A stretch of 64,000 nucleotides of DNA from Alphaproteobacteria bacterium (GTDB lineage Bacteria > Pseudomonadota > Alphaproteobacteria > UBA828). Shown here piece after piece: positions 12,928 through 64,000 of this stretch. Positions within the stretch are counted from its first letter, which is position 1. Each line of letters opens with the position of its first letter. The stretch covers positions 3,392,001-3,456,000 of the forward strand of contig OZ243972.1 in assembly GCA_965214705.1 (NCBI GenBank). The letters run 5' to 3'. The notes under the pieces are model-generated. The model made no database searches. It saw only the letters and a program-made list of their open reading frames with translations, and was not told the DNA's origin. The position numbers were made by a program, and so were the translations under genes.

Positions 12928-12973
12928 ATCGTGAATGGCGGGCGCGAATACTCAACGATTGAGGACTGACGTC

Positions 12974-28237: not shown

Positions 28238-28269
28238 CGGGCGGCGCGCGGCGGAATCGGAGGACGGGC

Positions 28270-33221: not shown

Positions 33222-33275
33222 AGCCGAGCCGAGCCGAGCCGAGCCGAGCCGAGCCGAGCCGAGCCGAGCCGAGCC
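33222..33275. repeat. Pentanucleotide microsatellite AGCC(GAGCC)10
   Basis: Ten perfect GAGCC units at 33226-33275 plus a partial unit, 61 bp upstream of ATG 33337. Confidence 0.97.
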
Positions 33276-47757: not shown

Positions 47758-48309
47758 GTGACGGACGGCGAGACGCCTCCCTGGAAGCCTACGCCCCTGT
47801 GGAAGCTGATGGTCGGTCTCCGGCCCTACCGGGCGGCCTACGAGGAACAGGCGGAGCCGCCGGCGTTCGAGGAGGCCGTCTTCCCGGTACGCGTGCAGTC
47901 GGAGGCCGACCTTGCGGCGCGCGAGTCCTGGCGGATCGAGGCTTGGGAGAACCCCTTTGCGCGGGACGGTCCGGCTTCGCCGTTCCTGGCCGGCGAGCCG
48001 ATGCTGGAGGCCGAGGGTTCGGCGGAGGCGACGCCGCTCATGCCGTTTCTCGCGGCCGCGGGCGCGCGCATTGACGGGCTCCGGCTTCTGGACGGAACGC
48101 TGATCGTCAAGATCGAGCAGGACGGGCGCGCGGTCCAGGTCCGGGTGGCGAACGACGGCCCGCTGCTGTCCGGCGGCGGTTTCCGGGTCTGGTGCGATCC
48201 CGGGGCGGATCTGCCGATGACCATGGCCCGGCTGGCCGCGCTGTTGAGCGTCATGGGCGGTCCGGCCCCTCGGCCAGGGTGGGGGCGGTGGGCGAGAAAC
48301 GGGAACTGA
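47758..48309 (+). CDS. N-terminal part of an FseA-like transcriptional activator (DUF6499-like)
   Basis: LWKLMVGLRPYRAAY resembles the 'AWxFLRRNPxYRxxW' motif and SWRIEAWENP resembles 'WGLxxxEDP'; immediately followed by a DUF2285-like frame. Confidence 0.55.
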   Translation: MTDGETPPWKPTPLWKLMVGLRPYRAAYEEQAEPPAFEEAVFPVRVQSEADLAARESWRIEAWENPFARDGPASPFLAGEPMLEAEGSAEATPLMPFLAAAGARIDGLRLLDGTLIVKIEQDGRAVQVRVANDGPLLSGGGFRVWCDPGADLPMTMARLAALLSVMGGPAPRPGWGRWARNGN

Positions 48310-48311
48310 CG

Positions 48312-48509
48312 ATGGCGCTGGCGCTGAACCGGGCGAAGGTGGCGTCGCAGCGCGAGCTGGCGATCGGCTGGTGGGGCCTGGACGAGGTCGAGAAGCACTG
48401 GGCCACGAGCGACTGGATGCGCACCCGGGTGCGCTACCGGCTGGAGGCGGCGGCCGGGATCGAACGCAGCCGCCGGGAGGGCGGCTCCTCGGAGAGGGAC
48501 GGCGGCTGA
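48312..48509 (+). CDS. DUF2285-like (RovC/FseA C-terminal) DNA-binding domain, in the -1 frame relative to the upstream ORF
   Basis: ELTMALAL...ASQRELAIGWWGLDEVEKHWATSDWMRTRVRYRL resembles DUF2285 'ALD...ASxREIAxxLFGxxxVxxxW...R.RVRRL'; this frame is open from 48192. Confidence 0.6.
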   Translation: MALALNRAKVASQRELAIGWWGLDEVEKHWATSDWMRTRVRYRLEAAAGIERSRREGGSSERDGG

Positions 48510-48617: not shown

Positions 48618-49241
48618 CTACCGGACAATTCCCTGTTTCCGCGCCGTCTCCATCGCAAGGCTCTCCGAAGCATCGAGGAATGCGAACAGCGCGCTGAGGT
48701 CGTCGATGTAGTGCTGCCATTCACGCCCGGCGGCATGTTCCCAGGCGTACCGCTTTCTCCACAGTTCCACGTCGTCGTCCATATAGGCGAAGACGTCCGC
48801 GAGGCTTTGCAGCGGCCGGTTCACGGGGCCTTCCGGCACGGCGGGATCGTCGGTGCTCAGGAACGCGACCAGGGTGAAGGGATATTCGGCCGCGGCCTGC
48901 CCGTAGAGCCGCTCCAGCCCGGCTCCCGTGGAAACCCCGTGCGCGCCGAACAGTTCGTGGAGCCGGGCGAGGCGATGCCCGTCGCGGCCTGCCGGGGGTG
49001 TGACGCCGTTCAGGCGCAGGAGGCACTTCAGCCGGAGCTCCAGGGCGATCGCGAGATTGAAATGGCTGGCCGTCTTGAGGGACTCCCACACGGTGTGCGA
49101 CGGCCAGCCCGATGCGCCGTCCACCGGGGAGAGGTCTCCGCCCCTCGCCCCGAGCCTGGCGATTTCCCGCTCGGTCAGCGACGCGGACTGCCGGAAGGCC
49201 CGGGCGTCGCCGATCAGCCTGAGGAACTGCACGCCGTTCAT
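48618..49241 (-). CDS. Hypothetical protein, HEPN-like fold
   Basis: FNLAIALELRLKCLL...GHRLARLH...WRKRY pattern typical of HEPN-family helices; downstream of and co-oriented with the TA pair. Confidence 0.5.
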   Translation of the reverse strand: MNGVQFLRLIGDARAFRQSASLTEREIARLGARGGDLSPVDGASGWPSHTVWESLKTASHFNLAIALELRLKCLLRLNGVTPPAGRDGHRLARLHELFGAHGVSTGAGLERLYGQAAAEYPFTLVAFLSTDDPAVPEGPVNRPLQSLADVFAYMDDDVELWRKRYAWEHAAGREWQHYIDDLSALFAFLDASESLAMETARKQGIVR

Positions 49242-49271
49242 CGATCCGCCTCGGCCGGTTTCGGGTGAGCG

Positions 49272-49721
49272 CTAGCGATACGCGGACGCGCGCCTGGCCG
49301 GGCGCGCCGCGGCATTCCCGCTCAGCACGTAGAGATCGGGGAGCGGCAGCGCGAAGCCGCCGCTCCAGCCGGCTCCGTCATTGCCGGCCGGCGTGTCCGG
49401 ATCCCGGTCGGCCCCCAGGGGGCGAAGCCGGAGGCCGAGGGCGTTCATGACGCCGACCACGGTCGCGAAGCCGGGATTGCCGTCGCCGGAAAGCGCCTTG
49501 TAGAGACTCTCCCGGCCCAGTCCCGTCTTTGCCGCGACGGCGGTCATCCCTCTGGATCGAGCGACGTCTCCGAGCGCCGCCGCGATGAGGCGCGGATCGC
49601 CGTCCTCGAACGCCGCTTCCAGGTAAGCCACGACGTCGTCGAGGTCCTCGAGATGGTCCGCCGCATCCCAGGGGCGGGTCTTCGCCCGTGCCGCATCCGC
49701 GCGGGTTCGCGACTCCTTCAT
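49272..49721 (-). CDS. Addiction module antidote (HI1420-like HTH antitoxin)
   Basis: PWDAADHLED...YLEAAFEDGDP...ALGDVARSRGMTAVAAKTGLGRESLYKALSGDGNP; start overlaps the toxin stop. Confidence 0.9.
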   Translation of the reverse strand: MKESRTRADAARAKTRPWDAADHLEDLDDVVAYLEAAFEDGDPRLIAAALGDVARSRGMTAVAAKTGLGRESLYKALSGDGNPGFATVVGVMNALGLRLRPLGADRDPDTPAGNDGAGWSGGFALPLPDLYVLSGNAAARPARRASAYR

Positions 49722-50026
49722 CGGTCTTCCCCTTTCACCAGTTCCCGGGCGAGGCCGCGCGCCCGTTCTATGTCGTGGCGCTGGGTCGCCTTGTCGCCGC
49801 CGGCCAGCAGCACGGCCGTTGCGCTGTCGACACGACAGAAATACACGCGGTAGCCCGGCCCGTAGTCGATCCGAAGCTCCGAGACGCCGCCGCCGACCGG
49901 CCGCACATCGCCCGGGTTGCCCAGCGACAACCGGTGGATGCGGATGAGGATCCGCGATCGCGCCTGCCTGTCGCGAAGTTTCCGGAACCAGGTGTCGTAC
50001 GCATCGGTCTGGCGAACTTCGACCAC
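49718..50026 (-). CDS. Addiction module killer (HI1419-like RelE/ParE toxin)
   Basis: WFRKLRDRQARSRILIRIHRLSLGNPGDVRPVGGGVSELRIDYGPGYRVYF...LLAGGDKATQ; GTG start at 50026. Confidence 0.92.
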   Translation of the reverse strand: MVEVRQTDAYDTWFRKLRDRQARSRILIRIHRLSLGNPGDVRPVGGGVSELRIDYGPGYRVYFCRVDSATAVLLAGGDKATQRHDIERARGLARELVKGEDR

Positions 50027-50484: not shown

Positions 50485-50763
50485 ATGGCGGACGACACGA
50501 AATACCTGTCGACGCGCAAGGCGGCGAAGCATCTCGGCCTGTCGCCGCGCACGCTCGACCGCTTGCGGGTGAGCGGCGGCGGACCGGTCTACCACCTGTT
50601 CGGCACGGCGGTGCGCTACCTGGCCGAGGACCTGGACGAGTGGTCGAGGACGCGGCGGCGGCGCTCGACCTCGGACGACGGCTCGGGCCCGCGGCCCGGG
50701 CCGGCTGCTCCGGCCCCCGGATCCAGTCCGGGGCAGGACTCCGGGCCGGGGGCCGCCCGATGA
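50485..50763 (+). CDS. rdfS: RdfS/AlpA-like winged-HTH excisionase (recombination directionality factor)
   Basis: YLSTRKAAKHLGLSPRTLDRLRVSGGGPVY...VRYLAEDLDEW...RRSTSD; the HTH_17 pattern and STSD tail are typical of RdfS homologues. Confidence 0.8.
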   Translation: MADDTKYLSTRKAAKHLGLSPRTLDRLRVSGGGPVYHLFGTAVRYLAEDLDEWSRTRRRRSTSDDGSGPRPGPAAPAPGSSPGQDSGPGAAR

Positions 50764-50936
50764 GCGGCCGGGAGCGGATGCGGGCGGCCGCCGCCGTGGC
50801 GGCGCTGACGACCGGCGACACCACGTTCGGCGATCGGCTCGACACGGTGGAGAACATCGTCGGCGGCACCGGCGACGGCCGCGCGGCTGAGCTCGCCGTC
50901 GGCGGCGCCGTGGCCGGCACGGCGATCGTCCGATGA
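50760..50936 (+). CDS. Small ORF (58 aa), possibly a shortened conjugative pilin (TraA-like) remnant
   Basis: ATGA-coupled at both ends; TTGDTTFGDRLDTVENIVGGTG...LAVGG loosely resembles pilin N-termini but lacks long hydrophobic helices. Confidence 0.35.
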   Translation: MSGRERMRAAAAVAALTTGDTTFGDRLDTVENIVGGTGDGRAAELAVGGAVAGTAIVR

Positions 50937-52690
50937 GCGAGACCCGGCGCCAAGCGATCACGGGCCGGATTCCGCGGGGCATTGCCGCGCACCTTCGACG
51001 GTGCGCGGGAGGCGCGGAAGCGATGCCGGCAGGACGATATTCCAAGGTCGTCGAGAGCCGTGCGGCGGGACGCCGGGCACAGGCTCGGCGCTCCCGGCGC
51101 TTCGGCTGGAGCCCGGCGGCGCTCGTCCTTTGCGCGGTTCTGCTCTCGGGCTGCGGCGCGGCGGTGTGGGAGGACGCGCGCAGCGAGACCGACGAGGCGG
51201 CGCACGACGTCGCCGCACTGAAAGAGGCGGCGGAGCGGCCGCGTTTCTCCGCCATCCGGGTGATCGAGCGGCGCCCCTGGCTCGGGCTTGCGCGTCAGGA
51301 CGCACGGGAAGAAGACGTCCTGCCGGCGCGCTTCCTGGAGCCCGGCGCCGTGACCCTGCCGCTGGCCGGGATCGGCGAAGCGTCGATGCTGGCGCGGCGC
51401 GTCGAGGCGGCGACCGGGATCCCGGTGCGCTTCATCGGCAAGGCGCATGCGGGCGAAGACTCCTCCCGCACCGACTCCGCTGCAGGAGTGTCTCCCGCAG
51501 GCTTCGGCATCGACCGTCTCTCGCCCGACGGCGGCGTCTGGACCGGGCCTCTCGATGCGCTGCTCGACGCCTGGACGGAGCCGGCCGGCTACGCCTGGGC
51601 CTACGACGCTGAGGAAGGCGCGATCGGGATCGTGCGCCGCGAGGCGGTGGCGTTCCGCATCCACGCGCTTGCCGGCAGGCAGCGCTACGAGGCGTCCGGG
51701 TCCACCGACGACGGTGTCTCGGGGGGCGACGAGGGCGGCGGCGTGTCGACGCGCCAGTCGATCATGGCCGAGACCGACTACGACCCCTGGCCCGAGATCG
51801 AGGCGCAGGCGGCGGCGCTCGCGGGGCCGGGCGCGTCGGTGACGGCGGCGCCTTCGAGCGCCTCTCTGCTGGTCAGCGGCACGCCCCGCGACGTGGAGCG
51901 GGTGCGGGCCTGGCTCTCGTGGCTCAACCGCGAGGTGCTGCGCCCGGTCACGCTTTCCGTGCACGTCTACGCGGTGCGCATGGAGCGCGAGGCGGACTAC
52001 GGCTTCGGCCTCGCCGCCCTGGTGAAGGAGCTGTTCGGAACCTCCGCCGAGCTGGCGGTGACCCCGGACTCGGTGGCGATCGTGCGGCCGTCGGCTGCGG
52101 TCGGCGACACGCTCGCGGCCACGGTGCGGGCGCTGAGCCGGGCGGGGACGGTCTCGCGGGTGCTGTCGGCGGACATCCCTTCGCTCAACGGCAAGCCCGC
52201 GCAGTTCTTCGAGCTCTACAAGGAAGCCTACGTCAAGGAGCAGCGGACCACGGCGGGCGAGGGCATCGCCCAGACCGAGATCGTGCCGGGCACGGTCTCC
52301 TCGGGGTTCGCGGCGAGCTACGTCCCGCGCATCACCGGGCCGGGCGAGGTGCTGGTGCGGCTGTTCGCGAGCCTGCGCGACCGTCCGGTGTTCCGCGAGG
52401 TCGGCGGATCGGGCACGGCGATCCAGCTTCCGGCCTATGCCAGCCGGGCGGTGCAGGTGACGCAGCGGATCCGGCGGGGAGAGACCCTGCTGGTGACGGG
52501 GTTCTCCACCCGGCGCTCGGAAGCGGACGGCTCGGGGACCTTCTCGGAAGACGTGCCCCTTCCCGGCGGCGCACGCCGGGGCGCGCTGGCGCGGTCCGAG
52601 CAGGTGCTGCTGGTAAAGGCCGAGATCGGCGCGCCGCTGGGCATTGCCGAGTCCAGGGAGCGCACCGATGGCTCGGGAGAGCCTCTGTGA
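50933..52690 (+). CDS. pilN: Type IVb pilus outer-membrane secretin (PilN/BfpB-like lipoprotein)
   Basis: Lipobox VLLSG|C; WTGPLDALLD...GYAW; LVSGTPRDVERVRAWLSWLN; SLNGKPA, IVPGTVSSGF, IQLP, GETLLVTGF. Start may be ATG 51023. Confidence 0.8.
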   Translation: MSETRRQAITGRIPRGIAAHLRRCAGGAEAMPAGRYSKVVESRAAGRRAQARRSRRFGWSPAALVLCAVLLSGCGAAVWEDARSETDEAAHDVAALKEAAERPRFSAIRVIERRPWLGLARQDAREEDVLPARFLEPGAVTLPLAGIGEASMLARRVEAATGIPVRFIGKAHAGEDSSRTDSAAGVSPAGFGIDRLSPDGGVWTGPLDALLDAWTEPAGYAWAYDAEEGAIGIVRREAVAFRIHALAGRQRYEASGSTDDGVSGGDEGGGVSTRQSIMAETDYDPWPEIEAQAAALAGPGASVTAAPSSASLLVSGTPRDVERVRAWLSWLNREVLRPVTLSVHVYAVRMEREADYGFGLAALVKELFGTSAELAVTPDSVAIVRPSAAVGDTLAATVRALSRAGTVSRVLSADIPSLNGKPAQFFELYKEAYVKEQRTTAGEGIAQTEIVPGTVSSGFAASYVPRITGPGEVLVRLFASLRDRPVFREVGGSGTAIQLPAYASRAVQVTQRIRRGETLLVTGFSTRRSEADGSGTFSEDVPLPGGARRGALARSEQVLLVKAEIGAPLGIAESRERTDGSGEPL

Positions 52691-54048
52691 GCGTCATCGA
52701 CGTCGGCGGGCGGGCTTACGCGGCCGGGCTCTACTGGCTGGAGCGCGGCGGCGCGGGGGCCACCGCGCGGACGGCGCGCAGGCTGGACCGGCCGTGGTGC
52801 GTGCATCGCGGCGAGCGCACCGGCTTCGCCGCCGACGATACGGGGGAGAGCCCCGAAGGTCTTCCGGCGCTGGCGCTGGCGCTTCTCGCGTGCATCGAGG
52901 GCGCCTTCTGGATGGCGCTGCTCGAGGGGGATGAGGACCCGTCCGGCGGGCGCCGCTACGCGCTGGTGAAGGCGCGGGGCGGCACGGTGCTGGCCGACGG
53001 GGACGAGGTCTTCGAGGACCGGGCGGCGGCGCTGGCCGCGTTCGAGCGGGCGCGGCCGCTCGGCTGGTCGCTGTTCGCCACGCCGGGATTGCAGGACGAG
53101 GTTGGTGGCGCGGGCCGGGAGGTAGCCGCGCTGGATCCGGCGGCGCTGGCCGAGGCGGCCGCCGCCGCCGGGGATACGATCGCGCTCGCGCGCGCGGTCT
53201 CGCGGCGGCGCTGGCTGCGCCCGGTTGCGGCCGCGGCGGGCGTTGCCGTGCTGGTTGCGATCGCCGTGCTGTGGTTCGAGCGCGACGCGCTGATCGCCTG
53301 GCTGAGGGGGCCCGGGACGGGTGCGGTTGCGCCAACGGTGCGGCCCGATCCCGTAGTGGCGGTGGCGGTGGACGGCGCGGCGCTGATCGCGGCCTGCCGG
53401 GAGGCGCTGATCGCCCATCCCCCCTTCCTGCCGGCATGGCGGATCGAGCGCATCGAGTGCGCGGCGCGGTTTGCCGATCCCGAGCTGAGCGGGTTGGTGC
53501 CGGAGCTGGCGGGCCGGGCGGCGCTGCTGGTGCGCTGGGGGCTGAAGGACGGCCACGCGGAGGCGGTGCAGCGCCGCGTCGCGGAGAAACATCTGGCGCG
53601 CTGGCACGCGGCGGCGGTGGCCGGCGCAAGGGCCTGGGCGGCGGCGCCGCTCGGGCCGGTGCTGCGCGTCATGGGCACTCGTGCCGGCGACGCGCCCGCA
53701 CCGGCATTCGTCGAGCTGCGCCGCGAAGTGGACAGGGCCTTCGGCGCGGGCGGCGCCCGCGTGGGCTACGCCCGGGGCGCGGGCGGCGGATGGACGGTGC
53801 GCATCGACGAATACGGGCCGCTCGGCCGGCTCGGGCCGCTCGCGGGGGGCGTCGATGGCCTGGAGATCGTCGCGCTCGCGCGCGGCGAAAGCGGCCCCTG
53901 GCGGCTGGAAGGGCGGCCGGCGGCGCCGGAGAGGGTCGCGGCCTCGCGGCTGAAGGCCCTCGGGGTGACCGGCAGACCGGCCGCGGCAAGTAGCGGACTG
54001 AACCAACTGGAGAAGGAGGCGGAGGATGGAACGCAGAGGCACGAGTGA
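52687..54048 (+). CDS. pilO: Type IVb pilus accessory protein (PilO-like)
   Basis: VIDVGGRAYAAGLYW N-terminus, VLADGDEVF, single central TM, 'ACREAL...LPAWRIERIEC'; position after the secretin. Confidence 0.7.
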   Translation: MSVIDVGGRAYAAGLYWLERGGAGATARTARRLDRPWCVHRGERTGFAADDTGESPEGLPALALALLACIEGAFWMALLEGDEDPSGGRRYALVKARGGTVLADGDEVFEDRAAALAAFERARPLGWSLFATPGLQDEVGGAGREVAALDPAALAEAAAAAGDTIALARAVSRRRWLRPVAAAAGVAVLVAIAVLWFERDALIAWLRGPGTGAVAPTVRPDPVVAVAVDGAALIAACREALIAHPPFLPAWRIERIECAARFADPELSGLVPELAGRAALLVRWGLKDGHAEAVQRRVAEKHLARWHAAAVAGARAWAAAPLGPVLRVMGTRAGDAPAPAFVELRREVDRAFGAGGARVGYARGAGGGWTVRIDEYGPLGRLGPLAGGVDGLEIVALARGESGPWRLEGRPAAPERVAASRLKALGVTGRPAAASSGLNQLEKEAEDGTQRHE

Positions 54049-55693
54049 GCCTGGGCGGATGCGCGCCGTGCGCGGGTTCAGGGCCTGGCTGCTCTCGGGG
54101 GCCAGCATGGCGGTGCTGCTGGGGGCGGGTGCCCTCGCGGCGGGGCCGGCGCTTGCGCAGGTGGCGGCGGACGAGCGGGTCTACCGCGCCGAGGCGCTGG
54201 CGCATGCGGGCGCGGTGGAGACGGCGTGGCGCAGGCTGGAGACCTTCATCCTGGAGGAATCGGGCGCGGCCGTGTCGTGGCCGGGCGCGGTGCCGCCGGC
54301 ATCGACGGGCTGGCAGGGGTCATGGACGCAGCGCGGGCTGGAGGCGCGCTACTGCGAGGACACCCTGCTGGTCTACCTGGCGCCGTACGAGCTCAAGGGC
54401 ACGGGCGCCGACCACCGGGCGGTGCACGCGGCGCCGCACGCCTATGGCGGGGGGGAGAAGCCGGTCCTGCACTGGCTCGAGAGCGGCGTGGCGCGGGGCG
54501 GCGCCGGGCGGGCTTCGGTAACGCTGCCGGACTGCCTGTCCGAGGCCGCGCAGGGCGGCCCCCTTCCCTCGGGCCGCGCCGCGCTCGCGGGCGCCGTGCG
54601 CGATCCCTTTCTGCACACGGTGGAGCGGGTGTCCCGCGAGCGGCGCGAGGAGCCGTGTCCGGCGGGAACTCACGGCGACGGCCGCACGCAGGTGCGCGAG
54701 GTGACGCGGACCGAGAACGGCCGGGGCGATCCGGTGGGCGATCCCGTCGAGGGGCCCTGGGAGATGCTGATCGACCTCTGCCGGGCCGACTACAGCCGGT
54801 GGGAACACTACACGCTGGAATGCCACTGGGACGCCGGCCCGCCCCACAACCGGCGCATGGAAGGCCGCGAGGTGTGGCGGCGGATGCGGACGGTGAGTGC
54901 GGCGGGCGAGACCCTGGGCGCGCCCGAGTTCGTCTCGACGAGCTGCTGGACCGGCAATGCGCTGCCGCCCCCGCCCACTCCGGAAATCTCGGAGACCGCG
55001 CGCGAGGAGACGAAGAGTGGGAGCTGCCCTGCGGGCTACACGGGCAGCATCGGCTACCGGCGCACCGTGACGCTGCGCTCCACGCGCTTCCCCTGGGATG
55101 AGGCGCCGGTGATGCAGACGATCTACGGCCCGTGGACCGTGGCGAGCGACGGCTGCGTGGCGGTGCCGGAGCAGGACCATGACGGCCCCGGCGACGGAGG
55201 CCACGGGGACCCCGGCGGCGACGGCGGCACGGGCGGACCGGGCGGCGACAGCTGCGGGGGGACCGACTCGGGCGCGTCGGCTCCCGGCGATGGTGTCTGC
55301 AGCGGCGACGGCATTGGCGGCGGCGACGGGGGCGGAGATGGCGGCGCGGGCGGCTGCTTCCTGACCACGGCGGTCGTGGAGCTGCGCGGCGAGGCGGACG
55401 GCGGGCCGACGCTGACGGCTCTGCGCAGCTTCCGCGACGGCTACATGGCAAGGACGGCCGAACGCCGGGCGCTGGTTGCCGAGTACTACGCCGTCGCGCC
55501 CGCGATCGTGGCGGCGATCCCCGAGGGGCATGCAGAGTGGGAGCGGATCGCGGCGGAGGTCGACACGGCCGCAGACGCGATCGCCGGCGGCTCCGACGAC
55601 GCGGCGTTCGGCATCTACGTTGGGCTGGTGAGCCGGCTGAAAGCGGACTGGTTGCCGGATGCGTCCGGCCGGACCGACGGAGGCCGGCGGTGA
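54026..55693 (+). CDS. Secreted Cys-rich protein with G/D-rich linker and CFI-box-CTERM-like domain
   Basis: Signal peptide (AGPALA|Q), CPAG repeats, linker, then GGCFLTTAVV...LTALRSFRDGYM...LVAEYYAVAPAIV. Confidence 0.75.
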   Translation: MERRGTSEPGRMRAVRGFRAWLLSGASMAVLLGAGALAAGPALAQVAADERVYRAEALAHAGAVETAWRRLETFILEESGAAVSWPGAVPPASTGWQGSWTQRGLEARYCEDTLLVYLAPYELKGTGADHRAVHAAPHAYGGGEKPVLHWLESGVARGGAGRASVTLPDCLSEAAQGGPLPSGRAALAGAVRDPFLHTVERVSRERREEPCPAGTHGDGRTQVREVTRTENGRGDPVGDPVEGPWEMLIDLCRADYSRWEHYTLECHWDAGPPHNRRMEGREVWRRMRTVSAAGETLGAPEFVSTSCWTGNALPPPPTPEISETAREETKSGSCPAGYTGSIGYRRTVTLRSTRFPWDEAPVMQTIYGPWTVASDGCVAVPEQDHDGPGDGGHGDPGGDGGTGGPGGDSCGGTDSGASAPGDGVCSGDGIGGGDGGGDGGAGGCFLTTAVVELRGEADGGPTLTALRSFRDGYMARTAERRALVAEYYAVAPAIVAAIPEGHAEWERIAAEVDTAADAIAGGSDDAAFGIYVGLVSRLKADWLPDASGRTDGGRR

Positions 55694-56907
55694 GGCGGGC
55701 CTCTCACACCCTGTCAGTCAGGGGCGCGGCGCTGATGGGCATGCTCGCGGCGGCGTTCGCGGCGGACGCCGCATGGGGCCAGGCGGCGACGGGCCCGAAC
55801 TTCAGCTCCCATGCCGCGCCGTTCTTCGAGGAGCTGTTGGCGGGACGGGTGTGGGTGCTGGAGCGGCCCAACTCGTCGCGTGCGGACGACCGGGGCGCGG
55901 CCTGGGCGCACTACCACGCGCCGGACGGCACCCTGCTGGCCTGCGCCCATCTGGGCGGCGAATACGCCGGTGCGGAGGCGCGCTGGCGGGTTGTGCCCTC
56001 GCGCGCCTTCCGCGCGCTCTACAACTACCTGGAGCCGGGCGCCGAGCCCGATCCGGGCAGGCGCCGGGGGCACACGCCGATCTTCTACGACCCCGGCACC
56101 GGCGCGCTGCACAACGAGGCCACGGGGGATCAAAGCCGCTGGGCTGTCGCCTCGCGCGGCTGGGTGCAGGAGAGCTGGCCCGCAGTGATGAAGGAGGCCT
56201 GCCCGGACCTCTCCCTGCCCCGCTCCCTTCCGGTCAACCGGCGCCAGACCGCGACGCGCATCGACGAGATGATGGCGCAGGACCCGGACGCCGTGGTGCG
56301 CAACGCGCCGGGCTCGCACCTGCGTGGCCCCGGCGCGATCGGCATCGCTGCCGCACAAGGCCGGGCGCGGCTGCCGGCCACGGACCTCGCGAGGTTTCTG
56401 GCGGAGAACGATGGCTTCGTGCTGACGGACACGGCGGGCGCCCGGCACGTTCTGGTGCTGGGCGCAGACGGCGATGAGCTCTGGCTGCTCGACGCCGACG
56501 GCGGCGTGGTCGACACCGGGCTGCTGTTGCCGGTGGCGGGGGGCGCGGAGATCGCGGTGCACTACGCACGGCTGCCGGTGCGGCCCCGCTACCGGATCGG
56601 CGACGCCCTCCCCTTCCTGCCGACCGGCGAGCGCTTCGCGGCCATGCGGATCACCGACCGGGTGGCGGCGCAGGGGACGCCGGTGGTGCTTCCCGTGTCC
56701 GGCACGAGTGTCCCCGGGCGGTCGGAGACCGTGGTGCGGCTCCGAGCGGACGGGTCTCTCTTCGCGGAGGGCGGCGGCACGGAGACGGTGCCGGGAACCT
56801 GGCGCTGGTCGCGGGGCGAGCTGGCGGTGACGCTGGAAGGCGCGGCGGGCGAGGTGAGCATCCCTTGGCGGGTGCTGGCCGACCAGGCCGGGCCGGGACT
56901 CCGGTGA
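55690..56907 (+). CDS. Hypothetical exported protein within the pilus operon
   Basis: GTGA/TGATG coupling to both neighbours; signal peptide ...AADAAWG|Q; coding-like composition. Confidence 0.7.
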   Translation: MRRASHTLSVRGAALMGMLAAAFAADAAWGQAATGPNFSSHAAPFFEELLAGRVWVLERPNSSRADDRGAAWAHYHAPDGTLLACAHLGGEYAGAEARWRVVPSRAFRALYNYLEPGAEPDPGRRRGHTPIFYDPGTGALHNEATGDQSRWAVASRGWVQESWPAVMKEACPDLSLPRSLPVNRRQTATRIDEMMAQDPDAVVRNAPGSHLRGPGAIGIAAAQGRARLPATDLARFLAENDGFVLTDTAGARHVLVLGADGDELWLLDADGGVVDTGLLLPVAGGAEIAVHYARLPVRPRYRIGDALPFLPTGERFAAMRITDRVAAQGTPVVLPVSGTSVPGRSETVVRLRADGSLFAEGGGTETVPGTWRWSRGELAVTLEGAAGEVSIPWRVLADQAGPGLR

Positions 56908-57980
56908 TGGCTGCGGTTCGCATGCCCTGCCGGCTCCCGGTCCTGGTGCTGCTTGCCGCGTTGACGACGGCGGCGGCTTGGGCGGGCGATGCGCCGGTGG
57001 CGCCGTTCCCCGGCACGAGTGTCTCCGGTACGGACGTCGAAGGCAGGCAAGAGAGCCTGCCGGAGCAGGCGCCGGAGGCCTCGGACGAGGCGGCGTCGGA
57101 AGCCGGAGCGGAAGCGGTGGGTGTGGCCGTGCCGGCGGTCGATGCGGGTCCTTCGGAGGCTGCGGTGCCCGACGGCAGCATGGCTGCGGAGAAACCGGCA
57201 GCGCCGGCGGGCGGCAGCCGCCTGCTGCGTGCGCTGGCCGATCTGCCGAAGACAGTCGGTCGGGCGCGGAGCGATGTTCCGGGCGACGTCACCCGCCCCG
57301 GAATCCCCCGGGTGTTTGCGGCCGAGGGATGTCCGCGCGCGCTGCTGCGCCGCCTGCTGGCGGGCGCGGCCGGCGAGGCGGATGCGCTGTCCGCGCTCGG
57401 GATCGAGCGGGAGATCCTCACCCTCTGCCGCGAGCGCCAGGAGATCGTCGCTGGGCTGTTGGAGACCGAGGCGCGGCTGAGCGAGCTGCGCGAGGCCGGG
57501 CGAGGCCCGGAGCCGGAGGCGGCGGCCTCGGCGGCGAGCGCGGTCCCGACGCCCCGGGTGGAAGCGGCTGGCGAGGCGCCAGCTATTGCAAGGGCTGCCG
57601 CGTCGCCCCTGCGTGCGGCGCTCGGCGGCGCGGCAGAGAAAGCGAACGAGGCAGACACTCCTGCCGGAGACACTCGTGCCGGAGGTCCTCAGGGCGGAGA
57701 ACCGCGTGGCACGGAGCCGCGGAGTCCGGCACGCGTGTCCCCGGCACGAGTGCCTCCGCGCTACGCGTGGTTCTCGATCATCGGCACCGCGGGCGCGCTC
57801 CGTGCGGGCGTCACCGACGGGACAGGCGTGTGGTTCGTGCGCGAGGGCGACCCGCTGCCGGGCGGCGCGACGATCGCCGCAATCGCGGGAAGGCCGCCGG
57901 CCGTCCGGGTGACGGGCGCCGGAGAGAGTGGGGAAGCAACCCTGCTGCCCTTCCGCGCGAGGCCGGGAGGAGTCCCGTGA
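56907..57980 (+). CDS. pilP: PilP-like type IVb pilus biogenesis protein
   Basis: Signal peptide, low-complexity/coiled-coil middle, C-terminal SIIGTAGALRAG...VREGDPLPGGATIAAI beta domain; position before the ATPase. Confidence 0.55.
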   Translation: MAAVRMPCRLPVLVLLAALTTAAAWAGDAPVAPFPGTSVSGTDVEGRQESLPEQAPEASDEAASEAGAEAVGVAVPAVDAGPSEAAVPDGSMAAEKPAAPAGGSRLLRALADLPKTVGRARSDVPGDVTRPGIPRVFAAEGCPRALLRRLLAGAAGEADALSALGIEREILTLCRERQEIVAGLLETEARLSELREAGRGPEPEAAASAASAVPTPRVEAAGEAPAIARAAASPLRAALGGAAEKANEADTPAGDTRAGGPQGGEPRGTEPRSPARVSPARVPPRYAWFSIIGTAGALRAGVTDGTGVWFVREGDPLPGGATIAAIAGRPPAVRVTGAGESGEATLLPFRARPGGVP

Positions 57981-59707
57981 GGAGTCCCGGGCAGTTGGTT
58001 GGCCAGTGGCTCGGGGACTGGCGTGGGCGGGCGCGTGCGGCGGCCGAAGCTGCGATCGGGCGGCTGGACGGAGGCCGCGGCGGAGCCGGGAAGGCGCCGG
58101 CGCCGGGCGGAGACGCTCGCGCCGGTGACGCTCGCGGCGGGGACGCCCGTGCCACCGACCTGCCGATCGACAGCAGCGCGATGGACGCGCGCTTCCGCCG
58201 GCTCTGCGCCGTCTTCGCCGACGGGCGCTGCCTGATCGCCGAAGGCTACGAGCCCGACGACCGGCTGCGCCTCGACCTGGTGAAGCTGCGCGAGGCCGGA
58301 ACGATCCCGGCGGTGCTCACGGAAGAGAGCGTGACGCTGGAGGAGATCGCGGCGCTCTGGCGGGTGCATGAGGGCGGCTCCGCGCCGGACGGCGGCGGCG
58401 CGGCCACGCGCCTGCGCTCGCTGCTGAAGGACGCCGCATCGGCGAAGGCCAGCGACGTGGTGTTCGAGCAGGGCCCGGACGCCTGCAAGGTGTTCTGCAT
58501 CGTCAACGACCGCAAGCTGCCGCTGTGCCCGGCCCTCACCCCCGAGGAGGGCCGCCGGGTCATGGGCTTCCTCTTCCACTGCAAGGACGAGGGGAGCTCG
58601 CAGACCAGCTACCGCCGCGCCTCCTTCCAGGGCTTCTCGATCCGCGCCGGCGGCGCCGTGCCCCTGCCGGGCGGCATCTCGGCGCTCCGTTGCGAGCGCG
58701 GGCCTCACGACCCCGACGCCGACCACCTCTTCGCGCGCCTCTTCTACACCGACCGCCTGGATCCGGACACGACGCTGGAAGGGCTGGGGTTCAGCGAGCA
58801 GGAGGCCGCGCTGTTCGCCGAGATCCGCATGGCGATGCAGGGCGGGGTGTTCATCGGCGGGCGCGCCGGCGACGGCAAGAGCACCACGCTCGCCGTCAAC
58901 CTGGCGCTCCAGATGGCCGAGATGGCGGGCCAGCTCAACCTGGTGACGCTCGAGGACCCGGTCGAGTACCGCATCCCCGGCGCGATCCAGATCGCGGTGC
59001 CCACGTCGGGCGCCGGCGAGACCCGCGCCGGACACTTCAAGGAGGCCCTGATGCACTTCTGCCGGGTGCATCCGGCGTCCGGCATGGTCTCGGAGATCAG
59101 GGACGCCGACGCCGCCCGGCAGGTGCTCCAGTGCGTCGACACCGGGCACCAGATCTGGACCACCATCCACGTCCACAACGCCAACGCGATCCCCTTCCGG
59201 CTGATCGACATGGGGGTGGGCGCGGCCGAGGTGGCGAAGCCCGGCAACGTGGCGCTGCTGATGAAGCAGACGCTGTTGCCGAAGCTGTGCCAGGCCTGCG
59301 CGCTGGACCGCCCGGCGGGCGGGCGTGCGGTGCCGGAGGGGCTGATTTCGCGCCTCGGCGGGATCGAGGGGCTGCGCTTCAGGAACGCAAAGGGGTGCGT
59401 CGAGTGCCGGCGGAAGGGCGGCGGCAAGGTCTCGGCGCGGGCCTGGAACGGCTATCTCGGCCAGACCGCGATCGCGGAGTCCATCCGCCCGGACGCGGGC
59501 TACCTGCGCTTCGTCCGCGCGGGCGATCCCCTCGGCGCCTGGGCGTACTGGCGAAGCGAGATGGGCGGCGTTCCCATCGGGGTGCGCATCCGCGCCATGG
59601 TGAAGCAGGGCGCGGTCGATCCCTTCGACGCGCTGCTCAAGGGCGGAGCGGGAGAGCACGAGGCGCAGGCCGATCCCGTGCCCGACGATCCCGGAGACAC
59701 CGCGTGA
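57977..59707 (+). CDS. pilQ: Type IVb pilus assembly ATPase (PilQ; GspE/PilB family)
   Basis: ASDV, Walker A GRAGDGKSTT, TLEDPVEY, SEIRD, TGHQIWTTIH, CxxC...CxxC. Confidence 0.88.
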   Translation: MRSPGQLVGQWLGDWRGRARAAAEAAIGRLDGGRGGAGKAPAPGGDARAGDARGGDARATDLPIDSSAMDARFRRLCAVFADGRCLIAEGYEPDDRLRLDLVKLREAGTIPAVLTEESVTLEEIAALWRVHEGGSAPDGGGAATRLRSLLKDAASAKASDVVFEQGPDACKVFCIVNDRKLPLCPALTPEEGRRVMGFLFHCKDEGSSQTSYRRASFQGFSIRAGGAVPLPGGISALRCERGPHDPDADHLFARLFYTDRLDPDTTLEGLGFSEQEAALFAEIRMAMQGGVFIGGRAGDGKSTTLAVNLALQMAEMAGQLNLVTLEDPVEYRIPGAIQIAVPTSGAGETRAGHFKEALMHFCRVHPASGMVSEIRDADAARQVLQCVDTGHQIWTTIHVHNANAIPFRLIDMGVGAAEVAKPGNVALLMKQTLLPKLCQACALDRPAGGRAVPEGLISRLGGIEGLRFRNAKGCVECRRKGGGKVSARAWNGYLGQTAIAESIRPDAGYLRFVRAGDPLGAWAYWRSEMGGVPIGVRIRAMVKQGAVDPFDALLKGGAGEHEAQADPVPDDPGDTA

Positions 59708-60756
59708 TCGCCCGGCTCGCCATGCCGCTGCGCCGCGTTCATGCCGCGCTGGTGATGGGGCGGAAGGCGCGCGTCGACTGCTTCCAGACCGTGGCCGACC
59801 TGCTCGCGGCAGGGTTCGAGCTGGAGCGCGCCCTCGGCGTCGCCGCGCGGGCCATGGGTGGGGGCGCCCGGGCCCGCCTGATCGCGTCGTGGCGGGCGGC
59901 GCTGCCGGCCGGAGGCTTCGCGGACGCCATGGCCGCCTCCGTGCCGCCGGCCGAGGCGATGATATTCGAGGCCTACGGAAGGGTGGACGCCGGGCGGCTG
60001 TTCGCCGCCGCTGCGCGCATCGCGGAGCTGCGCGAGCGCCAGATCGCCGCGGTGCGGAAGGCGCTCGCCATGCCGCTCCTGCTGGGAGTGGCGGTGGTCA
60101 CCATGCTGTGGGCCGCCGGCGGCTGGTTCGTGCCCGTGCTCGAAGGGGTGGTTCCGCCCGAGCAGTGGGGCCCGGCGGCAGGCCTCTTCCGGGCCGCCTC
60201 GTCCTGGCTCTACGCGCAGCCGCTGGCCTTTGCGGGGCTCTGCGTGGCCGTCCTCGTGCCGCTCGGGCTCGCCACGGTGCTGTGGACCGGGCCGGGGCGG
60301 ACCGCGCTCGACCGCATCGCGCCCTTCTCGCTCTACCGCACCGTCACCGGCTCGGCCTTCCTGTTCGTGGTGCTCGAGATGCTGGGCGCGGGCCTCGACC
60401 TCAACGACCGCGCCTTCGAGGACCTCAAGCGCCGCGCCGGCCCCTACGCCCGCCACCGCATCGGCGCGATCCAGCGCCACATGGTGCGGGGCGCCGGGCT
60501 GGGCCGCGCCATGGCGCTGGCCGGCCACGGCTTCCCCGACCCCTCGCTGGTGCCGGTGGTGGCGGCCCTCGACGGCGTGCCCGGCTGGGAGGCGAAGCTC
60601 TCCGGCTTCGTCGCGCGCTGGGTGGACCGCTCCGAGGACCTGCTGCGGACCCGCGCCGCCGGGCTCAACGCGGCGCTGCTGATCCTGGTCACGCTGAGCG
60701 TCGCCGCCGGCATCGACGCCATGTTCTCGATCCTGCAACAGGCCGGACGGTCATGA
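59704..60756 (+). CDS. pilR: Type IVb pilus inner-membrane platform protein (PilR; GspF family)
   Basis: Three TM segments; WTGPGRTALDRIAPFSLYRTVTGSAFL; GLGRAMALAGHGFPD. Confidence 0.85.
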   Translation: MIARLAMPLRRVHAALVMGRKARVDCFQTVADLLAAGFELERALGVAARAMGGGARARLIASWRAALPAGGFADAMAASVPPAEAMIFEAYGRVDAGRLFAAAARIAELRERQIAAVRKALAMPLLLGVAVVTMLWAAGGWFVPVLEGVVPPEQWGPAAGLFRAASSWLYAQPLAFAGLCVAVLVPLGLATVLWTGPGRTALDRIAPFSLYRTVTGSAFLFVVLEMLGAGLDLNDRAFEDLKRRAGPYARHRIGAIQRHMVRGAGLGRAMALAGHGFPDPSLVPVVAALDGVPGWEAKLSGFVARWVDRSEDLLRTRAAGLNAALLILVTLSVAAGIDAMFSILQQAGRS

Positions 60757-60776
60757 CCCAAGCGAAAGGAGACATC

Positions 60777-61427
60777 ATGAGAGACACTCGTGCCGGAGAA
60801 ACCGCAGGTTTCGGGCCTTCCGGCCTCCCTTCTTCCGGCCTCGCGACAGGCGGCGCCCGGCGATCGATACGGCGTTTCGGCGCCAGGCGCTGGCGGCGCG
60901 GCTTCAGCCTGTTCGGCGTGCTGCTCGGGCTCGGCCTCGCCGCCGTGGTGATCGTCGGCGCCGTCGGCACCTACAACGCGGCCCGGGAGGCCGCCAACCG
61001 GAGCGCCGCGCTGACGCTGCTGAGCCAACTCCGGGCCAACGTCGAGGCGGCCTTCGCCGGCGCACCGAGCTACGGCAACAATGCCGACCTGGTGCCGGCC
61101 ATCGACCGGCGCGGCGGCATCCCCGGCGGCGCCCGCGTGGCGGCCGGCAGCGGCGTCGAGATCCGCCATCCCTTCGGCGGGGAGGTTACGGTCACCGGCG
61201 GGCCGGGCGGGATCACCAACCGCTTCCGCATCACCTTCGAGGACGTGGACGACGCCATCTGCGCGGCGCTGGGCGACGCTTTCGCCGGGCGCAGCCGCGC
61301 CCGCGCCGGCCTCGTGCAGATGACGATCAACGGCACCGGGCTCGCCTCGCCCGTGACCAACGCCCAGGTCACCGCCAACTGCGACGACGGCGATGCCGAC
61401 AACGACATCGGGTTCACTTTCGGATGA
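60777..61427 (+). CDS. pilS: Type IVb major pilin (PilS-like)
   Basis: RBS AAGGAG before ATG 60777 (alternative start 60753); long leader, RRRG|FSLFGVLLGLGL hydrophobic helix, IRHPFGGEVTV, two C-terminal Cys. Confidence 0.82.
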   Translation: MRDTRAGETAGFGPSGLPSSGLATGGARRSIRRFGARRWRRGFSLFGVLLGLGLAAVVIVGAVGTYNAAREAANRSAALTLLSQLRANVEAAFAGAPSYGNNADLVPAIDRRGGIPGGARVAAGSGVEIRHPFGGEVTVTGGPGGITNRFRITFEDVDDAICAALGDAFAGRSRARAGLVQMTINGTGLASPVTNAQVTANCDDGDADNDIGFTFG

Positions 61428-62782
61428 CGGCCGGAGGCCGAAGACCCTCGGGCTCGGGGTCGAAGGGCATGGATGCGCGGCAGCCGACGTCCAGGCGGAG
61501 ACCCGTGCCGGAGAAACAGCGCAGGCGCGGGGCGTACCAGGGCGTTCCCCTGTACCGGGGCGTTCCCCCGTTCCGGCTTATCCGCCTGCGCCTGATGAAG
61601 CTGAGGCCGCTCCCGTGGCGGGGCCGGGGCACGCGCGGTCGCGACCGGCGCGGTCGCGACCGGTGCGGCGCGGGCGCGCTACTCGGCGTGCTGCTGCTGG
61701 GAGCGCTGGCGGGCGCGGCGCTGGCAGTTCACTACGAGACGCGGGCGGCCGAACGTGTGCAGGCCCTCGACCGCGCCGCGGGCCGCGTGTTCGCAGGCTG
61801 GGTGCATGCGGCGCACCGGGCGACCCAGGCCCACGCCGACGCCTTCGAGACGGCGCTCGAGACCCAGGTGGGTATCGTGCTCACCGTGGCGCGGTTGAGC
61901 GCGCTGGGCGCGGCGCCGCCGGACCTGCCCGCGCGTCCGGGGCGCAACGCCGCCATGACGCTCGGGGTCATCCCGGACGGCACGTCCCGGCGGACTCCGA
62001 TGGCGTTCGGGGTGCTTGAGCCCGCCGCGTCGTCGCGCCCCACGGCGATGCGCGAGGGCGCGCTGGAAGCGGGCCTCGCGGCGGTGGCGCCCGGCGGGGG
62101 CGCGCTCATGGAGGGGCACAGGCCGGCGATCGAGGCGGCGCTCGGCCGGATCCTCGGCGCGGACGCCCTCTGGGTCACCTCGGACCGGGGAATTCGGTAC
62201 CGCGAGCGCGCGCTCCATCGCCGCGCGCAGCCGGGTCGGCCCTGGCTCAACCGCATGGAGACCACGCTGGAGATGGCCCCGCCCGGCGCCGCGGACCCGG
62301 CGCACCCCGCGCGGCGGAACATAACGGATGCGGGTGCGGTGGACGCAGTGTCGGCCGAGGCCGGGACCGACGTGGCCGCGGGCGGGGACGCAACGGCGGG
62401 CGGCCGCGCGGATGCGGCGGGGCTGAGGGCGGAGACGGTCGAGGCGGGCGATCTCGCGGCGTCCGCGTTCGCGGTGACCGCCGATCTCGTGGTGGGCGCC
62501 GCCGTCACCGGGCGCCTCGCGGCCGACCGGGTGACGGCGACCGGGCCTCTGGAGGCCGGCGCTGTTCGCAGCACGGGCGCGCTCGATGCGGCGGCGCTGT
62601 CGGTGGCCGGGGACGCGGCGGTCGAAGGGGCGGCGGGGGCACGGGCGGTTGCCAGCGAGACTCTCGACGTGACGCAGTCGCTGAGCGGATCGCGGACCGC
62701 AGCCGGCGGTGTCTACGGCCCCGACGCCACGATCTCCGGCCTGCTCACCGTCGGCAGCTGCGCCGGCTGCGAGGGGCAGTAG
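61424..62782 (+). CDS. PilV-like minor pilin/adhesin 1
   Basis: G|ALLGVLLLGAL hydrophobic N-terminus; ALHRRAQPGRPWLNRMETTLEM (PilV constant-region motif); A/G/V/T-rich repeat stalk; ends TVGSCAGC. Start uncertain (possibly ATG 61595). Confidence 0.65.
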   Translation: MTAGGRRPSGSGSKGMDARQPTSRRRPVPEKQRRRGAYQGVPLYRGVPPFRLIRLRLMKLRPLPWRGRGTRGRDRRGRDRCGAGALLGVLLLGALAGAALAVHYETRAAERVQALDRAAGRVFAGWVHAAHRATQAHADAFETALETQVGIVLTVARLSALGAAPPDLPARPGRNAAMTLGVIPDGTSRRTPMAFGVLEPAASSRPTAMREGALEAGLAAVAPGGGALMEGHRPAIEAALGRILGADALWVTSDRGIRYRERALHRRAQPGRPWLNRMETTLEMAPPGAADPAHPARRNITDAGAVDAVSAEAGTDVAAGGDATAGGRADAAGLRAETVEAGDLAASAFAVTADLVVGAAVTGRLAADRVTATGPLEAGAVRSTGALDAAALSVAGDAAVEGAAGARAVASETLDVTQSLSGSRTAAGGVYGPDATISGLLTVGSCAGCEGQ

Positions 62783-62785
62783 GCG

Positions 62786-63952
62786 ATGAGACGCGCCGCG
62801 GCAAGCACGCGCGACATCCGGGAATGGGCCTTGCGGCCCGGTCGGGGACGGAGCCTGCGGCTCACTCGCGGTCTCGGCCTCTTCGAGGGTCTGCTGGCGC
62901 TGGGGCTGCTCGGGCTGCTGGTGCTGGGGGCCACGGTGTTCTTCGAGACGCAGGCGCTGGAGAAGCGCGGGCGCCTCGCGGCGGTGCAGCTCTCGGTGCT
63001 GGCGGAAGCGGCCGCGTCGTACGCCCACAGCCGCTTCCCCGCCCTGCTGACGCAGGCGCAGGCGGGACCGTCGGAACTCGCGTTGGCGACGCTCAAGGCG
63101 GCGGGATCGCTCACGGACGATTTCTCCGAGGTCGATGCGCTCGGGCGCGCCTACCGGGTGCTGATGCTGGCGGCCGGGCCGGACGCCTTCGACCTGCTGG
63201 CGACGGAGACCGTGGATGCCGGCGACACCGTGCGCCCGGCGGCTGCGCTGCTGGAGGCGGCGGGGCCTCGCGTGGGCCTCGCCGGCCCCTCGCGACTCTC
63301 GGGACCAACGGTGGACGCCGATCTCGCGGCCTTCCGGGCGGCCTTTTCCGGAGCGCCCGTGGAGGGGGCGCTGGCGGCGCTCAGGCGCTTCGACCACGGC
63401 AGCGTCTACGGCGATGCGCTCTACCGCGTCGCGATCCCCGGCTTCGCCGAGGCCAACCGCATGGAGGCCGATCTCGACATGGCGGGCAACGCCATCGAGG
63501 GCGCGGGCACGATCGAGGCGGCGAGCCTGGACGTGGAGAGGGATCTCACTGCGGGCGGCGATTTCACGGTGACCGGCGATCTCGTCGTGGGCCGCGCCGT
63601 GCGCGCCTCGGGCACGGTCGAGGCGGGAGGGGCGATGACGGCCGCGGCGGCGCGCATATCGGGGCCGGCCTCGGCGGCGTCGATGACGGTCACGGGCGCG
63701 GTGCGTGCGCAGACCGTGGAGGCGGTGAACCGGGTCGAGGCCGCGTCCATCGGCGCCGCCGGCGCGGTGGCCGCCGGCAGCGCGCGGCTGGGCGGCCTCG
63801 ACGCCCGGTCGGTGACCGCCCGGACGATGACAGCGGATTCGGTCGCCGCCGCCTCCGTCACGGCCACGCGGGTGCAGGCGGGCACGCGGCTCGATGCGGT
63901 CGACGCCGGCATTTCGCGCTTGGTCGTCGGGCGCTGCCAGGGGTGCCGGTGA
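62786..63952 (+). CDS. pilV: PilV-like minor pilin/adhesin 2 (shufflon N-terminal-type constant region)
   Basis: RG|LGLFEGLLAL prepilin motif; LKAAGSLTDDF; ALYRVAIPGFAEANRMEADLDMAGN; ends VVGRCQGC. Confidence 0.75.
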   Translation: MRRAAASTRDIREWALRPGRGRSLRLTRGLGLFEGLLALGLLGLLVLGATVFFETQALEKRGRLAAVQLSVLAEAAASYAHSRFPALLTQAQAGPSELALATLKAAGSLTDDFSEVDALGRAYRVLMLAAGPDAFDLLATETVDAGDTVRPAAALLEAAGPRVGLAGPSRLSGPTVDADLAAFRAAFSGAPVEGALAALRRFDHGSVYGDALYRVAIPGFAEANRMEADLDMAGNAIEGAGTIEAASLDVERDLTAGGDFTVTGDLVVGRAVRASGTVEAGGAMTAAAARISGPASAASMTVTGAVRAQTVEAVNRVEAASIGAAGAVAAGSARLGGLDARSVTARTMTADSVAAASVTATRVQAGTRLDAVDAGISRLVVGRCQGCR

Positions 63953-64000
63953 TGCGGGGGCCGGCAAGGAAGAGGAAGGGCGGGGCCGCGATGGCGTTGG

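Follow-up and report, generated by a model that had tools for sequence, protein, structure and literature searches.

A 15-bp repeat behaving as an in-frame insertion in the type IVb pilus and transfer genes of a probable alphaproteobacterial conjugative element

The small dispersed repeats (SDRs) of Nostocaceae are reportedly 21-27 nt long, a length attributed to Elhai et al. 2008. According to later papers, these very short repeats are mobile and one family, SDR5, inserts precisely at a short target, HIP1 (PMC4390886, PMC5861425); PMC3116915 and PMC4476775 contribute nothing further about SDRs. Intragenic repetitive extragenic palindromic (REP) sequences, which carry GTAG/CGTC tags, and Rickettsia palindromic elements (RPEs) are described as lying in coding regions, often at termini and linkers, as singles or in groups (PMC3733652, PMC3184786). 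Here we analyze a 64,000-nt stretch of an Alphaproteobacteria bacterium of the lineage UBA828 (assembly GCA_965214705.1, contig OZ243972.1, positions 3,392,001 to 3,456,000), hereafter the window, in which a 15-bp unit recurs within the genes of a type IVb pil operon. In relatives this operon is followed by Dot/Icm-like (MPF_I) tra genes, and the whole is probably an integrative conjugative element (ICE). We found that the unit behaves as an in-frame insertion and not as a fixed binding site. It is shorter than the mobile repeats in the literature with which it was compared, and its tie to a transfer module is unusual.

The likeness to SDRs lies in a very short unit of a kind reported to be mobile. 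As in SDR-like mobile repeats, precise blocks are present or absent at orthologous sites, and the sites are many, unrelated and in both orientations: the two elements compared have 24 arrays between them, of which 15 are forward and 9 reverse. The second element is locus L002 of a Rhodospirillales metagenome-assembled genome (MAG), whose PilQ is 80% identical. The phylum is different, however, and presumably the sequence too, and SDRs are chromosomal, whereas the 15-bp unit keeps to one module, also occurs in tandem and shows no invariant target. With REPs and RPEs it shares a palindromic repeat inside coding regions, but REPs are stable stem-loops of 20-65 bp, mostly intergenic, genome-wide and GTAG/CGTC-tagged, and RPEs measure about 105-146 bp. 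The 15-bp unit has no stable stem-loop, no tag in its flanks and only intragenic copies, and no REP-associated tyrosine transposase gene was found among the scanned open reading frames (ORFs) of the window and L002. The tandem repeats of Borgs are also element-specific, absent from the host, divisible by three in ORFs, flanked by partial repeats, variable in copy number and translated into disordered peptides, but their units are virtually locus-unique, A-rich, perfect and inferred to be of local origin (PMC9879509), in contrast to one GC-rich unit in 24 arrays at distant sites, in both orientations and often in single copy. HIP1 is likewise a short dyad over-represented in all reading frames; it is 8 bp long, genome-wide and conserved in position (PMC5861425), whereas the 15-bp unit is an indel whose positions turn over. 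Finally, the sfx sites of the R64 shufflon are short too and lie in either orientation close to the pilV gene of a type IVb pilus, but we found no sequence match, no Rci gene among the ORFs scanned and no evidence of inversion, and the copies are spread over about 20 kb. By these comparisons the unit is not a REP, an sfx site, a HIP1 site or a Borg repeat. The literature consulted, which included few subscription papers and no supplements, holds no description of this unit, nor of any micro-repeat that is dispersed in frame and found only in the genes of conjugative transfer. How repeats spread when they are far too small to code for an ordinary transposase or to attract one is an open question in the field, and the REP literature consulted names no transposase for CGTC REPs. 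In this sense, a 15-bp unit at about one per kb, limited to a single module in a single clade, with a motif-free sister clade to serve as control, at least 112 relatives, filled and empty alleles and a second unit to compare, offers a tractable case, and one where new protein sequence (leaders, tails and loops) is built from a single DNA word in five frames.

The unit reads GACACTCGTGCCGG(A/G), with the 10-mer CACTCGTGCC as its core, and occurs as singles, as pairs and as a degenerate triple. A preliminary description of this DNA had given the unit as 10-15 bp; the repeat period is 15 bp, and 10 bp does not stand as a unit. It had also counted seven exact copies of the core in both orientations, with well under one expected by chance, and this we confirm: the copies start at 53676, 54038, 56701, 57012, 57671, 57743 and 60785 (three on the forward and four on the reverse strand, the whole set within 53676-60794), against a mean of 0.31 and a maximum of 2 in 100 shuffled sequences. 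GC content is high (75%), and under an order-4 Markov model CACTCGTGCC is the most over-represented 10-mer of 47-64 kb. The motif is also rare elsewhere in the window, where the preliminary description had noticed none: a relaxed family pattern has 11 matches in 50901-64000 and a single weak one in 1-50900, where about 43 would be expected at equal density, although the left 27 kb may be foreign (GC 56-68%, flanked by insertion sequences) and the count there does not equal a full host-genome count. The proposed dyad form is over-represented too (seven matches against a chance mean of 0.63), but it does not mark the same seven copies, as 54038 lacks the dyad and 57728 has it.

Species-representative genomes were scanned with a 47-sequence PilQ alignment (the window and 46 of the 120 relatives below), giving 80 loci, 10 of them with this operon, and L002 alone was motif-positive. 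Protein relatives were sampled as the best 120 of 2331 for PilQ and the best 120 of 355 for the PilP-like protein. Against this material, the copies in the window are as follows.

53674..53688, forward strand: 15-bp unit in the pilO-like gene, codon 330, read as GTRAG; clean 15-bp gap in L002, L006 and L001.
54038..54047, reverse strand: partial copy at the overlap of the pilO-like stop and the orf54026 start; exact 10-mer, no dyad, not alignable as an indel.
56698..56712, reverse strand: 15-bp unit in orf55690, codon 337, read as GTSVP; clean 15-bp gap in L002, L006 and L001.
57009..57023, reverse strand: 15-bp unit behind the predicted leader of the PilP-like protein, read as GTSVS; 0-9 units there in the 120 relatives, absent in L002.
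57654..57683, forward strand: two tandem units in the PilP-like gene, read as DTPAG DTRAG; part of a 60-bp gap against L002.
57725..57754, reverse strand: two tandem units in the PilP-like gene, read as ARVSP ARVPP; the only array common to window and L002.
58112..58156, forward strand: three degenerate units in the PilQ N-terminal leader, read as GDARA three times; 0-5 units in relatives.
60783..60797, forward strand: 15-bp unit at pilS codon 3, ahead of the motif for prepilin cleavage; L002 has a clean 15-bp gap here.
61443..61513, forward strand: two degenerate units in the 5' extension of orf61424; 61443 is of a variant type and 61498 is one base short.
51476..51492, reverse strand: divergent look-alike in pilN, of uncertain membership, inside a 15-bp gap against L002.

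All copies in the window are intragenic and none lies upstream of the operon. The degenerate copies reported earlier hold at 57654, 57726, the triple 58112-58156, 61443 and 61498. The look-alike at 59018 is probably not a copy: it encodes the conserved PilQ peptide GAGETRAGH, present in 56 of 64 close relatives at constant length. Two forward copies do face two reverse ones (57654-57683 and 57725-57754), with arms of 31 nt that are 87% complementary and 41 nt apart, and GTRAG, GTSVP, DTRAG and ARVPP are indeed peptides in true gene frames. The statement that copies sit mostly in linkers and leaders fails for 53674 and 56698, which break otherwise conserved coding sequence and are not obvious leaders. 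At the triple, which falls in the low-confidence segment 28-58 of the PilQ model, positions 4 and 9 are altered together in two of the three units; the junction at 60783 shows a 4-nt direct repeat; and the 5' extension of orf61424 is absent in L006 and L001.

The suggestion of a tiny repeat inserting in frame, to be recognized as 15-bp indels between orthologues, is borne out by filled and empty sites. L002 carries 12 exact copies and 25 family matches in 18,907 bp, reaching through the tra genes, whereas no exact copy was found in L006 (PilQ 77% identical), L001, L003-L005, L007, L008 and L010, one was found in L009, and exact 12-mers were absent from 1.30 Mb of the 79 other loci. In a four-way alignment the window copies at 53674 and 56698 stand opposite clean 15-bp gaps in L002, L006 and L001, and a clean 15-bp gap in L002 likewise faces the copy at 60783, where the outgroups do not align. 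The reverse case also occurs: L002 is filled by 15 bp at its position 13217 where the window is empty (the pilV stop codon), and a clean 30-bp gap is found at L002:7174. At all these sites the outgroups are empty wherever they align. Over the same span, the seven main window arrays and ten L002 arrays share one position (57725). The orthologous operons are colinear with the window. Among 81 pairwise gaps, 31 are of at least 9 bp; 11 of these 31 are exact multiples of 15 and four are of 18 bp, and five of those 11 agree with the unit in 14-15 of its 15 bases. Two further observations concern the DNA of these loci: a 60-bp degenerate array (4 x 15) is inserted in the pilO-like gene at L002:2040-2100, beside a stretch already resembling a variant unit, and in L008 a long repeat present three times (700-1400, 6850-7500 and 12600-13250), probably an insertion sequence, interrupts the pil operon of a Kiloniella MAG.

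At the protein level, lengths change in 5-residue steps, and these steps together with the filled and empty orthologous sites are the basis for speaking of in-frame insertion. The 120 PilQ relatives have termini and internal loops with 0-5 pentapeptides from different unit frames. Unit peptides occur in 32 of 64 close but in one of 55 distant PilQ relatives (one fragment dropped) and are patchy on the tree. The unit is limited to one PilQ clade and to transfer genes. Where carriers have names, they are MAGs of Rhodospirillales and of Acidobacteriota; in the second case the contig is only 5 kb long, so the bin may be wrong. Among the PilP-like relatives, 112 of 120 carry unit peptides. The matches number 573 and use four frames, where shuffled proteins give about 39; the N-terminal site has 0-9 tandem units and, by our own count, there are about 19 site/frame groups in the gene family. 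Anchor-to-anchor lengths in one set are 15 (73 proteins), 20, 25, 30 and 35 residues, with five proteins at 13-16 and ten mis-anchored, and in a second set 2 (92 proteins), 7, 12, 17 and 22. The unit is read in five of its six frames, on both strands, and all six periodic frames are stop-free. Two Cys-containing frames have no match among the 120 PilP-like relatives, yet the PilQ tail often uses one of them, so each protein filters the frames in its own way. According to the PilQ model (mean predicted local distance difference test score 68) the N-terminal, residue-131 and C-terminal sites lie in or beside low-confidence segments. Searches among non-transfer proteins had too little sensitivity to say that host genes lack the repeat. 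With a 30-residue tandem query, 1.84 billion representatives yielded four unrelated eukaryote-like low-complexity proteins, and a 40-residue region search gave only five candidates and returned two PilQ proteins. In plasmid and phage collections no match fell below E 0.6; on plasmids, the closest PilQ relatives reach about 33% identity.

The unit thus shows insertion-deletion behavior and array-length variation, uses both strands and five frames, stays within one clade and module and is filtered by frame. As its nature we favor, with moderate confidence, a very small dispersed-and-tandem repeat copied by microhomology-primed template switching plus slippage. The switch would start where the 3' end of a DNA strand under synthesis resembles the unit imperfectly over 1-7 nt (usually RGA, sometimes CCGGNGA). 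This end would move to a copy or array already present at another place in the module, copy one period and return to its own template; slippage may then expand or contract the tandem copy number. The survivors would be multiple-of-three, stop-free periods, mostly in loops, leaders and tails, and the PilP-like protein would be cleared of Cys-containing frames. As a setting, the stage of conjugative transfer at which the element is single-stranded would be most plausible, and the repeat may be near-neutral or selfish and not regulatory.

The junctions agree with such priming in part. Array flanks extend the period by about three bases: 21 of 22 arrays have a purine in front of them, and behind them come G (16 of 22) and next A (15 of 22), the 22 arrays being the 24 minus two weak or overlapping ones. 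CCGG lies five bases upstream in four of 24 arrays (p 0.001), and beyond this and the RGA bias no invariant target was found among the arrays. A fixed one-base target duplication was considered and is unsupported by the flanks of the 22 arrays. The duplicated-looking base often differs between sides, for example at the pilV stop, and such differing bases would fit imperfect microhomology better than a true target duplication, two elements being too few to decide.

Several points weigh against template switching. The DNA junctions come from only two elements, of about 75-80% identity, and since they do, a fixed boundary with a 2-3 bp target duplication would look the same as variable microhomology; the flanking base is the same on both sides in 13 of 22 arrays, by our own count, near the base-composition expectation. 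Six of the 11 multiple-of-15 gaps match the unit poorly, and at 60783, with no aligned outgroup, gain and precise loss are not distinguished. Freedom from stops is nothing unusual (52-65% of random GC-rich 15-mers). Co-variation links positions 4 and 9, which are complementary in 32 of 43 units (A-T 20, C-G 10, G-C 2; Fisher p 5e-5, with copies that are not independent). Generic template switching explains neither the dominance of one or two units nor this co-variation nor the 5-2-5 dyad plus GG that a second family has in common with the first. As the copies are related, the co-variation may reflect just two or three events, and 32% of random periodic 15-mers have a dyad as good. The idea of a stable hairpin fell away (one unit has folding energies of -0.3 and 0.0 kcal/mol, and these folds lack the dyad stem), and a restriction-driven model found no support, as CCGG is not under-represented (ratio 1.02-1.08).

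These points leave some room, though clearly the smaller share, for a dedicated system, encoded or recruited by the clade, that would write 15- and 18-bp stop-free units by way of few-base homology and the 5-2-5 dyad, either as a minimal mobile element with its own enzyme or as self-installed protein-binding marks on transferred DNA.

That the units are written by an element enzyme, either a telomerase-like reverse transcriptase that would add templated repeats to ends by means of a short alignment region or an HUH transposase or recombinase moving a minimal non-autonomous element, is doubtful. The consensus is very uniform, with positions 1, 5, 7, 11, 12 and 14 invariant in 30 seed copies, but these were picked by similarity, which inflates uniformity. 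There is a terminal redundancy of about 3 nt, the unit is clade-restricted, two families share the 5-2-5 dyad plus GG, and a bacterial reverse transcriptase, DRT10, is known to make tandem repeats (PMC12632851). However, neither a reverse transcriptase nor an HUH transposase nor an invertase was found in 47 + 3 window ORFs (Pfam) or in 23 (NCBIfam), none was present among eight L002 ORFs downstream of pilV (where the downstream element is covered for 5.7 kb, in L002 only), the unscanned gaps of the island are too short for such a gene, and Rfam gave no match in 25-64 kb. An enzyme acting in trans should also strike cargo and chromosome, whereas 1-50.9 kb holds the one weak match mentioned above.

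Somewhat less probable again is that the dyad is the binding site of an element protein, a KorB/ParB-like silencer, as had been proposed, or a DNA organizer, gained by insertion and kept for its density and not its position. The compensatory changes at positions 4 and 9, the sharp confinement to transfer genes and the lack of strand preference would all suit such a role. Yet positions turn over, with one shared array, unlike the HIP1 sites, which are conserved (PMC5861425); every copy is inside coding sequence and none precedes the operon; motif-free sister elements carry the same operon; arrays of up to nine units at one site look like slippage; and a dyad this good is common by chance, as noted. 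No ParB or KorB gene was found among the window ORFs scanned with Pfam and NCBIfam. The operator proposal is unsupported, but some role at the DNA level keeps a small probability, because positions 4 and 9 co-vary and the element was covered only up to 64 kb.

Protein-level selection for variable-length disordered linkers in pilus and type IV secretion system proteins, as proposed for Borg tandem repeats, we hold to be improbable. Copy number does vary at fixed sites, Cys frames are avoided in the PilP-like protein and PilQ sites fall in low-confidence segments. But the same DNA gives unrelated peptides in five frames, so no peptide is the selected unit, many sites lie in a cytoplasmic ATPase, and one dispersed unit contrasts with Borg units that are nearly all locus-unique (PMC9879509).

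Shufflon-like recombination sites for an invertase, also suggested in the preliminary description, have very little left in their favor. The operon has a Shufflon_N PilV and opposed copies at 57654-57754, an L002 copy lies exactly at the pilV end, and the 18-mer described below shares seven bases with the sfx right arm. Nevertheless, no match to the sfx core plus arm was found at up to 3 mismatches, no rci-like gene follows pilV in L002, where pilV runs on into tra genes, the orthologues are colinear and the opposed arrangement is absent in L002, and inverted-spacer peptides are absent from the 120 PilP-like relatives, one of the three frames having a stop.

Chance, codon bias or an adapter or assembly artefact can practically be dismissed, for although 75% GC favors look-alikes and that at 59018 is a conserved peptide, none of 100 shuffles reaches seven copies, exact 12-mers are missing from the 79 other loci, and many proteins, assembled independently and drawn from several sources, contain the copies in frame and in varied and decayed form, which rejects an adapter.

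A second family, with a unit of 18 bp, behaves like the first.

61533..61568, reverse strand: two tandem 18-bp units, GGGGAANNCCCYGGTAC plus one base, read on the forward strand as YQGVPL YRGVP.

It has two matches in the window, five in L002 (1831, 1849, 10814, 11241 and 17419) and none in nine other loci. A clean 18-bp insertion is found at L002:11245, and PilQ anchor lengths for the 18-mer step by six residues (8, 14, 20 and 26). Among PilQ relatives, peptides of the 18-mer type, assigned at peptide level only, are present in five of the 64 close and 12 of the 55 distant ones. In both families a 12-nt dyad (5-2-5) precedes GG. In PilP-like relatives the 18-mer abuts the 15-mer across a common CCGG (peptide TLVPGNSP). 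As for other local repeats, a six-residue GTPWY insert is present at one PilQ site in 10 distant relatives, and a local 15-bp tandem duplication with a perfect 12-bp palindrome, single in L002, lies at 61628-61657; its sequence is unrelated to the main unit and its period is the same. No parallel micro-repeats were found in L001 and L003-L010, where over-represented words are long repeats or chance.

The operon that carries these repeats starts with an excisionase-like gene and a PilN-like secretin, followed by four genes without a pilus-family match, PilQ, PilR, PilS and two PilV-like genes.

50485..50763, forward strand: excisionase-like helix-turn-helix gene at the operon head (PF12728; NCBIfam Xis models below cut-off; orthologues in L001 and L006).
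50933..52690, forward strand: PilN-like type IVb secretin (TIGR02520, E 1.9e-46, below its cut-off; Secretin domains).
52687..54048, forward strand: pilO-like gene, named by position only; no family match, syntenic in relatives.
54026..55693, forward strand: orf54026, CFI-box-CTERM domain protein (NF041770, above cut-off).
55690..56907, forward strand: orf55690, conserved, no family match; orthologues in relatives.
56907..57980, forward strand: PilP-like gene, so called from its position only and the gene richest in copies; of 355 relatives the best 120 were analyzed.
57977..59707, forward strand: PilQ-like pilus ATPase (PF00437); 2331 relatives, best 120 examined.
59704..60756, forward strand: PilR-like inner-membrane platform protein (PF00482, below cut-off), no repeat copy.
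60777..61427, forward strand: PilS major prepilin (PF08805).
61424..62782, forward strand: orf61424, PilV-like paralogue (tblastn cross-matches with pilV).
62786..63952, forward strand: PilV-like minor pilin (Shufflon_N, PF04917); its stop codon is the empty site of the L002 insertion.

The assignment to an ICE of MPF_I type draws on the relatives: the pil operon continues into DotD, TraI/DotC, DotB-like or IcmL genes in L002, L006, L003 and L004 (IcmL only in L003 and L004), and several of the relatives' loci sit on chromosomes. Both PilV-like paralogues (61424-63952) end in a Cys-x-Gly-Cys motif, with no shufflon behind. No tRNA gene was found in the window. Upstream of the operon lie a toxin-antitoxin pair, a 4756-residue adhesin and two tyrosine integrases. 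The pair, at 48618-50026 and immediately before the operon, consists of a RelE/ParE-type toxin and an HI1420-type antitoxin plus an unassigned ORF, and an S24 repressor takes that place in L001 and L006. Two short ORFs at 47758-48509 are, we presume, like a split DUF2285-type ICE activator; family searches gave no support. The adhesin (33337-47607) has SWM, PKD, Big_5 and Calx-beta domains and internal repeats and is nearly without the 15-mer; a 5-bp unit in ten tandem copies at 33222-33271, about 65 bp upstream of its start, may be a phase-variation tract. The integrases (27038-29460) are in tandem and have arm-binding domains; the first is overlapped, in a different frame, by an open frame of 835 codons whose end lies within the second, and by eye an integrase-like remnant may lie on the reverse strand near 26.6-26.8 kb. 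Finally, the proteins P0007 (PilQ, 84%) and P0235 (PilP-like, 46%) suggest a second related element in the same genome.

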